Assembly: GCF_044647545.1 (NCBI RefSeq)
Contig: NZ_CP172818.1
Strand: one strand, 5' to 3'
Origin: Escherichia coli
GTDB lineage: Bacteria; Pseudomonadota; Gammaproteobacteria; Enterobacterales; Enterobacteriaceae
DNA length: 64,000 nt
The notes beneath the pieces are model-generated. The model was not told the origin of the DNA, did not search any database, and worked only from the letters and a program-made list of their open reading frames with translations. The position numbers and the translations under genes are program-made. Each line of letters opens with the position of its first letter. Position 1 is the first letter of the stretch. Below, piece by piece: positions 5,827 through 7,748 of the stretch.

Positions 5827-6720
5827 TTATTTCCTCCGCAACGTTACGCCGCCGGAAACCGCATCACCCTCTTTCTGTAATGCGTCCTGTTGCACAACAT
5901 AATCGGTTGCCAGTGCGCTACGCAGTTTGTCGAAGCTGGCAAAGTTCGCGGCCCGCAGCTGGAGGTGAAGCGTCTGGCGTTTTTGATCAAAGGTGAAACC
6001 ACGCATCTCGATGTCAGAAAGTGACGCCGATTTCAGGGTGCTGGCGATCGCTGACAATTCTGCGAGCAGCCGGGTATCGTCGGCCTGTGGGCGATATTTT
6101 TTCAGCGCCATCGTCACCTGAGAGCGTAAATTCACAATCCGCTTCTGCTCCGGGAACAGTGTTAAGAACTGTTTTTCCGCCTGGGTGCGGCTTTGCGCCA
6201 CCTGTTCGCTGACGCTCCATAACGTCACGCCCCGTTCCACTGCCAGCGCAATCAGAATCAGCAATATCGGCAGAATCATCACCCGCCAGCGCGCCCACTG
6301 TTTTCGGTAGCTGACGCGAGGCTGCCACGGCCCTGTTAGCAGGTTCCCTTCCGGTTCACCATAAGTGGTAATGGCTGGCAGAGCCGTAACGGTCAGGCGT
6401 TCGGCGTCCGCACCAGCCCATGCAGATAGTTCTTCCGGTGCAATGCCGACCACGGTTAGTGAAATCGGTAAATCCTGCTCATTGAGCTGTGCGCGGAACA
6501 TGACCGGAGCCAGCGCCCACCCGGCGCTCCATCCCCGGCACTCATTGATGCGGCAGATAACCCGTTGCGCATCGCCAGCCATATAGCCACAAGGAATGGA
6601 CATCCAGTCTGGCGCGACGGTAGCGCGGGTGATGCCGTTTTCCTGCAACCACTGCGCAATGTTGCGCATATGCTGCTGGTGAATCACTGCCACGGTTGCC
6701 AGTTGTTGGTCGATTTTCAA
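5827..6720 (-). pseudogene. yghE: Type II secretion system protein L homolog (GspL-beta), N-terminally truncated remnant
   Basis: 297-aa ORF with a TM segment and periplasmic C-terminal domain but lacking the ~250-aa cytoplasmic N-domain of full GspL; consistent with the K-12 deletion of gspD-K. Confidence 0.75.
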
Positions 6721-6752
6721 CGGGGCGAAATGCAGTTCATCGATATCCTGGT

Positions 6753-7748
6753 TCAGCTCTTCTTCCAGTAAGGCGGGCAGAATAGTCGGTAGCGCAGCGC
6801 GATGGAAATGTCGTGGCGCGCACCCTTGCGTAAAACCGTAAGTTGAATGGAATCCATTGAAGGTAACTGCCGCATCAGAGCAATCATTGCTCGTGGATCA
6901 GTGAAATCCTGCTGATTTAGCGCAATGGCGATATCGCCTTCCTTAAAACCGCTGGCATCGAACAGAGAACGATCTGCCCCCGGTTTCACTGCATAACCGA
7001 CAATCCCTTCCTTACGCACAGGCGTAAGCTGGATATAGTTAAAAATTTTCTGCGGATCTTTCGCCAGTGCCTGACGCACGGCAGCCGGGATCTCAACTGG
7101 CGCACTGACAGCAGGTTCAGCAACAGCTTGCTTTGCTTCGTCACTGACAGCTTTTTTGTTGGTCACGGCAACGGTGGAACGCTCCTCTTCAGCCAGGCTC
7201 AGGCGCTCTATTTTTCCCTGATAGCGCAGCATCACATGGTCGCGGTTGATTTCCTCAATCACTGCGTTGTGCGAGCCAAGCGTTTCACCCTGCAAATAGA
7301 CCTGCTGTTTACCACCTTCTTCAATAACCGCGCCGGGTCTGGCACCAAAGGCGATCCCACACAACACCACATTAAGACGCGTTTCGGCCACAGGTGCAGG
7401 TTCGGGTTGTTTTACCGGCGTGGCGACGGGCTGATATTTGCCAAACCAGTTTTGCTGGCTGATTAATTGCACGTCATTTTTATCGAACGCTTTTGCATCC
7501 GCACGGAGCGGTTTATTCGCCGATGGGGAAACCGCCGTATATTCCGCAGAAAAGGAGAAATAGCGCCAGAGTGAATGCGCCACTTTTGCAGAAATAATAA
7601 GCAGCATCAGCCAGAACATCCCGCGTGCAATTTTGCGCAGATGCTCTTTGTCTGTATTAAGAGATTGTCTCTGGTTAAGAGTGTGACGAATTTTTGTCAG
7701 CCATTGAATGAGATAAATTCGTGCGTCACGAAAAACAACCCGCGCCAA
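6753..7748 (-). pseudogene. yghF: Type II secretion system protein C homolog (GspC-beta), probably with altered C-terminus at the deletion junction
   Basis: 331-aa ORF with N-terminal TM segment, Pro/Ala-rich linker and PDZ-like region; real start may be an internal Met; the 3' end abuts the yghE remnant. Confidence 0.7.

Follow-up and report, generated by a model that had tools for sequence, protein, structure and literature searches.

The window analysed here, a stretch of 64,000 nucleotides from a record of the Escherichia coli chromosome (NZ_CP172818.1), carries the locus of a type II secretion system (T2SS-beta) beside the phenylalanine tRNA gene pheV, a hypervariable integration site that flanks this locus. 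The genes lie on a single strand in the order sslE-pppA-yghG(gspS-beta)-gspC...gspL-gspM, collinear with E. coli REL606, with ECONIH1 and with the annotation of K-12 (Table 1). A tblastn search of the window with all 13 T2SS-beta proteins of REL606 as queries (cut-off E<=1e-3) recovers GspM, residues 69-392 of GspL, residues 1-319 of GspC, GspS2 and PppA, and returns zero matches in the 64 kb for GspD, E, F, G, H, I, J and K. The core set GspC-M is incomplete, with D-K absent and GspL present only from about residue 73. An earlier note on this DNA had read the operon as lacking gspD-K, a reading that homologues of these genes anywhere in the window would contradict; the tblastn search looked for them and found none. 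The same note took the substrate SslE and the prepilin peptidase to be intact, which their open reading frames (ORFs) bear out, together with Pfam and tblastn matches for pppA and the identity of sslE to that of ECONIH1.

Table 1 Features of the T2SS-beta locus in the window, with coordinates, strand and the basis of each assignment
Feature	Coordinates	Strand	Basis
pheV (tRNA-Phe)	5068-5143	+	ARAGORN; annotated tRNA-Phe in K-12 and FDAARGOS_497
pheV-yghD spacer, K-12-type	5144-5283	no strand	alignment
yghD = gspM-beta, intact, 178 aa	5289-5825	-	Pfam T2SSM, E=2.3e-46; tblastn covers REL606 GspM 1-178
yghE = gspL-beta remnant, codons 73-392 and stop	5827-6789	-	tblastn, translation, Pfam
Deletion junction	6789-6792	no strand	alignment to the intact operons of REL606 and ECONIH1
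yghF = gspC-beta with 12-codon tail	6753-7748	-	Pfam T2SSC; tblastn; 319-codon gspC complete at 6792-7748
yghG = gspS-beta pilotin, intact	7766-8176	-	Pfam T2SSS_2; tblastn
pppA, prepilin peptidase, intact	8242-9051	-	Pfam A24_N_bact and Peptidase_A24; tblastn
sslE (yghJ), T2SS-beta substrate, intact	9180-13745	-	100% identical to ECONIH1 and many other genomes

Alignment to a complete operon, which the earlier note had proposed as the way to map the endpoints, was run with both REL606 and ECONIH1 and places the junction at 6789/6790-6791/6792: alignment of the left flank extends as far as 6791 and that of the right flank begins at 6790, 6789 being the last base found only in gspL, 6790-6791 (TA) being common to both sides, and 6792 being the first base found only in gspC (the sequence on either side reads ...GAATAGTCGGTA and GCGCAGCG...). 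The flanks align to the intact operons over 1.5 kb and 18 kb, both with E=0, so the pattern is not due to chance. The missing segment measures exactly 8,000 bp in REL606 (L003, 6005-14004) as in ECONIH1 (L005, 8008-16007, corresponding to 3,544,007-3,552,006 of NZ_CP009859.1), and comprises gspD-K together with 214 nt from gspL and one base of the gspC stop. A deletion scar had been announced at 6700-6770; the scar is real but slightly displaced, its junction falling 19 bp to the right of that interval, in which there are only the stop codon of yghF (6753-6755) and the earliest potential start of yghE (TTG at 6720). Nor do the 3' end of yghF and the 5' end of yghE meet within about 30 bp, as had been supposed: yghF and the gspL remnant overlap instead of abutting, the junction sits within the 3' end of the yghF ORF, and gspL-derived sequence reaches 6791, giving yghF its last 12 codons.

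At the breakpoints, the last base of the gspC stop is joined to the second base of gspL codon 72. Because the third base of the gspC stop is deleted, TAA becomes TAC (6789-6791) and the 319-aa GspC reads on for 12 out-of-frame gspL-derived codons (YRLFCPPYWKKS) to a TGA at 6753-6755, which makes the extended product 331 aa long (WP_400164854.1). The gspL-like gene is indeed truncated, as had been claimed: the 214 nt it has lost amount to its first 71 codons plus one base of codon 72 and belong to the cytoplasmic, GspE-binding domain, and the remnant is left without a start of its own, ribosome-binding context or translational coupling to gspK. In Pfam, the remnant matches GspL_C completely, but T2SSL only from profile position 76 of 231 onwards. 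The gspL frame is open upstream through the 3' end of gspC and has no start codon before the TTG at 6720, the first one in frame for yghE, so the annotated yghE starts are arbitrary; forms of 280 aa and 286 aa are found in public databases. Where the K-12 arrangement is annotated in the PGAP style, the gspL pseudogene extends to 6801 and shares 49 nt with gspC/yghF.

Exact homology between the breakpoints is limited to TA, or to CGGT(T)A if an imperfect match is allowed. Longer homology that might make the site a deletion hotspot was considered and rejected on these grounds. Judged by its endpoints, the lesion itself is an ordinary illegitimate, microhomology-type deletion, neither site-specific nor repeat-mediated: an 8,000-bp event with 2 nt (TA) of microhomology joined the last base of the gspC stop to gspL codon 72. 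Lost with it are the secretin (GspD), the ATPase (GspE), the platform protein (GspF), the pseudopilins (GspG-K) and 71 codons at the N-terminus of GspL. A T2SS without secretin, ATPase, GspF and pseudopilins is unable to assemble, so there is no secretion of SslE through such a machine; a machine carrying the gspD-K lesion would neither assemble nor secrete SslE, and to this extent the T2SS can be called nonfunctional, as it was in the earlier note.

An internal deletion of gspD-K that inactivates the system is well known in K-12 (PMC3707838; PMC2808357), and neither the deletion nor the accompanying loss of SslE secretion constitutes new biology. The lesion in the window agrees with the yghF-yghE lesion of K-12 MG1655 in every detail: the breakpoints are the same to the base, as are the change of TAA to TAC, the 12-residue tail and the gspL remnant (a pseudogene in the K-12 annotation), and sslE, pppA, yghG, yghF, yghE and yghD are likewise kept beside pheV. 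Over 6716-6944, junction included, the window equals MG1655 without a mismatch. Gene order, junction and the lack of an island at pheV would all be expected if the window were simply E. coli K-12, but that is scarcely conceivable, and the rest of the comparison rules it out. Over 1-24790, there are 824 mismatches to MG1655 (96.3% identity in 24.8 kb), so that the flanks are 3.7% diverged, and YghF differs at 13 amino acids; moreover, K-12 has an insertion sequence, IS5, at yghO/yghQ where the window has none, the window has about 7.9 kb that are absent from K-12, and 72 extra bp between pppA and sslE in K-12 are missing from the window. The match to K-12 asserted in the earlier note therefore applies to the junction, which is the same to the base, and not to the window as a whole, which shows these 824 mismatches to MG1655 and 0 substitutions relative to ECONIH1.

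The latter genome has the full gspC-M operon. The window shows 0 substitutions against it over 5284-6791 and 6790-24778 (19.5 kb), the only differences in these 19.5 kb being single-base insertions or deletions (indels) at 5290 and 9091, and 0 substitutions against FDAARGOS_497 over 1-5150. The intact T2SS-beta operons of ECONIH1, REL606/B, W, H10407 and E2348/69 (sslE-pppA-yghG-gspCDEFGHIJKLM) have the order and orientation found in the window, and the retained genes equal those of ECONIH1 at the nucleotide level, while the 8,000 bp missing from the window are what sets the intact operons apart. The best full-length match to the window reaches 97.1%, which might suggest a deeply divergent allele; this was rejected, as ECONIH1 matches both flanks with 0 substitutions. 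The apparent divergence arises because the ranking was by coverage and genomes with an intact operon match in two places. On these alignments, a structure otherwise confined to K-12 sits on a haplotype that belongs to genomes with an intact system.

Two side observations concern this haplotype. At 9091, in the REP-like intergenic region between pppA and sslE, one base is deleted (GGCC-GCGGG) relative to ECONIH1, REL606, K-12 and the record BS-01 described below, and the deletion adjoins the site of the extra REP-like sequence of K-12 (72 bp in total). The sslE allele is shared at 100% identity by many complete genomes of unrelated origin and serotype, among them ECONIH1, O6:H16 strains and isolates of canine and river origin; this spread suggests that recombination has distributed the locus haplotype widely. 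The exact YghD protein occurs on at least 1000 public contigs.

The junction is not the only K-12 structure on this haplotype. The window keeps the K-12-type pheV-yghD spacer, which ECONIH1-type genomes do not have; in its place, these carry capsule-type ABC transporter genes and a roughly 99-kb island. Both edges of the spacer are mixed in character. After pheV (5144-5160), a 3-nt deletion (CTA) and a T>A change give the island-edge TTCATA of FDAARGOS_497. At yghD (5284-5290), the C of ECONIH1 (T>C) is present, yet the K-12 length is kept with its extra T, the 1-nt deletion that goes with this C being absent. No complete genome shows this combination, the best match to 5060-5460 being 98.0%.

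A scan of 5,426 complete E. coli genomes finds the contiguous junction in 368, none of which matches the window sequence exactly. Among the matches listed, every junction genome except BS-01 is K-12-like, with identity and bit score equal to those of MG1655, and most are laboratory derivatives of K-12 (MG1655, MC4100, BW25113, DH5alpha, C600, J53), a few being labelled as isolates. The junction has 0 matches in GTDB species representative genomes, and in JGI metagenomes it lies on two contigs, both 99.99% identical to MG1655. In a collection of 15 billion proteins, the window's GspC allele ending at the regular stop (319 aa) is found on 891 public contigs and the 331-aa GspC fusion of K-12 on 773, whereas the window's allele with the 12-aa tail (WP_400164854.1) is found on exactly one.

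Other partial lesions of the T2SS-beta operon, with spans of 5.1-6.6 kb, are present in the complete genomes of FDN-24, FDN-9, N61, EM20-18-50 and ES9, where the annotation of the remnants reads "secretin N-terminal domain-containing protein" and gspK. Repeated loss of the locus, in different ways, is on record (PMC3707838), and the partial lesions in these genomes fit such repeated independent decay. This history invites the question of whether the same deletion might have arisen independently in the lineage of the window, at the two bases used in K-12, as a recurrent hotspot. Both flanks are indeed 100% ECONIH1-type up to the junction, and the repeated and varied loss of the locus (PMC3707838) and the other partial deletions, in FDN-24, N61, ES9 and EM20-18-50, also speak for recurrence. 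However, with only the 2-nt TA or the imperfect CGGT(T)A shared, nothing in the sequence would steer a second event to these very bases, natural lesions of the operon in other genomes differ in extent, and recurrence leaves both the K-12-type spacer and the noise described below unexplained. An independent origin is thus highly improbable.

Relative to ECONIH1-type genomes, about 53 kb of the window show only one or two substitutions, and the divergence from ECONIH1 is gathered in three heavily corrupted segments, at 24779-32703, about 40750-42250 and about 61000-62019. In the first, stretches of perfect identity, up to 500 bp long, are interspersed with stretches of 30-40% mismatch; transitions and transversions stand at about 1:2, the three codon positions are equally affected by substitutions, and indels are mostly of 1-2 nt and not multiples of three. 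Its roughly 7.9 kb are homologous to the yghO-yghQ interval of ECONIH1, where K-12 has IS5 instead, and contain genes for a fatty acyl-AMP ligase, an epimerase and an acyl carrier protein, along with spt, lptG/lptF-like and ytfJ-like genes, every ORF being broken. The first 1.1 kb (24779-25916) is a shortened, barely alignable, degraded copy of the ECONIH1 sequence (z = 9.7); a garbled K-12 IS5 was looked for there and no sign of it was found (z = -0.4 against shuffles). The other two segments are likewise noisy and shortened: that at about 40750-42250 corresponds to an IS3-family element of ECONIH1 between yghU and hybG, and that at about 61000-62019 to two hypothetical genes of ECONIH1 between yqhH and ygiQ. 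The counterparts of the first two are present in ECONIH1 and absent from the stretch of K-12 compared. The third lies beyond that stretch; yqhH and ygiQ are presumably adjacent in K-12, in which case this segment is absent there as well.

Natural divergence, or an ancient pseudogene cluster at 24.8-32.7 kb, was rejected as an explanation in view of the transition-to-transversion ratio of about 1:2, the lack of codon-position bias, the non-triplet indels and flanks that are 0% diverged. A synthetic or model-generated window was rejected as well, as the ORFs of the noisy segments are present in NCBI on one contig with WP accessions: six ORFs in or beside these segments each occur on one NCBI contig, and one of them is WP_400164855.1, the accession adjoining that of the GspC fusion. 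From the pattern of changes, the three corrupted segments are non-biological noise rather than the product of evolution.

A possible source of this noise is suggested by three related records, BS-01 (NZ_CP172816.1), HS-01 (NZ_CP172817.1) and BS-04 (NZ_CP172819.1), all RefSeq "complete genomes" from one Indonesian farm. The fusion protein and the noisy-segment proteins of the window fall in the WP_4001xxxxx range of BS-01 and HS-01, and the accession of BS-04 is next in the same series. All three records begin at MG1655 coordinate 1, with thrL at 190-255 exactly as in NC_000913.3, and sizes of 4.49-4.52 Mb compared with 4.64 Mb for MG1655; HS-01 aligns over 1-1999 with MG1655 1-2000 at 99.9% and retains the IS5 of K-12 at yghO/yghQ. 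All share with the window the K-12-type arrangement at the T2SS-beta locus, and BS-01 and HS-01 also share indel or noise artefacts near sites of structural difference. The "gspL remnant" of HS-01 (L012, 20340-21085) is noise of 77% identity in which fragments of gspI (123 bp) and gspF (143 and 45 bp) are embedded in operon order, meaning that the HS-01 strain has genes which its record "deletes"; this garble is what arises if reads that come from an intact operon are made to fit a template without one. In BS-01, the alleles are those of K-12 left of the junction and ECONIH1-like right of it, with indels clustered next to the junction, and BS-04 matches the T2SS-beta region exactly as K-12 does, with equal identity and bit score. 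The window differs from its siblings in having a clean junction with ECONIH1-type sequence on both sides, where HS-01 is garbled and BS-01 is K-12 on the left. These three records look like MG1655-templated assemblies. Nothing relevant came up when the literature was searched for the Sukabumi farm isolates and the way they were assembled.

Taken together, these results make it likely that the scar is the known K-12 lesion, taken over from an MG1655 template that was used to build the record of a non-K-12 isolate. The K-12 spacer and K-12 junction on an ECONIH1-type haplotype, and the segments that K-12 lacks, which are either missing or rendered as noise, fit a reference-templated assembly, and the record of the window was presumably built like those of its siblings. 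In such a procedure, the bases of the isolate would be written in wherever isolate and MG1655 are collinear, giving 0 substitutions relative to ECONIH1-type genomes. An insertion relative to the template, such as gspD-K, would go unseen by a mapping-type consensus; as no reference base is left uncovered at the gsp junction, the insertion would pass unnoticed and the junction would come out clean. Reference sequence would be left where nothing could be placed, as with the pheV spacer standing in for the island of about 99 kb, and poor local fills, i.e., the noise, would appear where the template has sequence of its own instead, at the IS5 site and in 113 bp at yghU-hybG. The replaced bases, the clean gsp junction and the retained spacer are observed outcomes, from which we infer the exact pipeline behind them.

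Some features of the data weigh against a templated origin of the scar. The junction in the window is perfectly clean, whereas that of HS-01 is garbled, and about 7.9 kb of non-K-12 sequence was placed at yghO-yghQ, yet nothing at gsp, which indicates that the builder was not blind to large differences; true absence of gspD-K from the isolate would also account for this contrast. In addition, the K-12 IS5 site bears no trace of IS5, so the template was not simply kept where reads were lacking. It is accordingly conceivable, though unlikely, that the K-12 junction on an ECONIH1-type haplotype is a true feature of the isolate. The principal way in which this could have come about is that a K-12-type deletion, identical by descent, was moved onto that haplotype by homologous recombination, either as a short imported patch (<=229 bp, 6716-6944) or through later overwriting of both flanks up to the boundary of heterology. 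In favour of this, a patch of this kind would be invisible, as the window and K-12 are identical over 6716-6944 around the junction; the BS-01 junction has K-12 alleles on its left and ECONIH1-like alleles on its right; and the junction in the window is clean in a record that places about 7.9 kb of non-K-12 sequence elsewhere. However, BS-01 comes from the same MG1655-framed batch and is therefore not independent evidence, and recombination requires one crossover within 76 bp of the junction and another within 155 bp, as well as a further such coincidence at the pheV-yghD spacer. It also leaves the confinement of the noise to segments absent from K-12 unexplained, and the fusion protein with the window's allele is found on one public contig only. 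A transfer by recombination is therefore decidedly unlikely.

Were the junction genuine, the "K-12" lesion would be either a natural allele in circulation, passed between lineages on very short recombination tracts that end at the boundary of heterology, or a site-specific deletion that recurs. Under the templated origin that we favour, the consequences concern the record: since it appears to be MG1655-templated, the scar probably belongs to the reference and not to the isolate, and is most probably uninformative on the secretion capacity of the latter, so that a nonfunctional T2SS, while valid for a machine with this lesion, is unsafe as a statement about this organism. A RefSeq "complete genome" thus appears to carry reference-derived structure, the warning signs being K-12 structure combined with a non-K-12 haplotype, noise that is restricted to accessory segments, and a transition-to-transversion ratio near 0.5, and windows from such records need screening in genome scans. 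If this is true, calls of presence or absence made from the record would be false for the isolate with respect to T2SS-beta, the pheV island and the capsule-type ABC transporter genes (beside yghD in ECONIH1), and surveys of the E. coli pan-genome or of virulence genes that include this record and its siblings would over-count "K-12-type" loss of the system.

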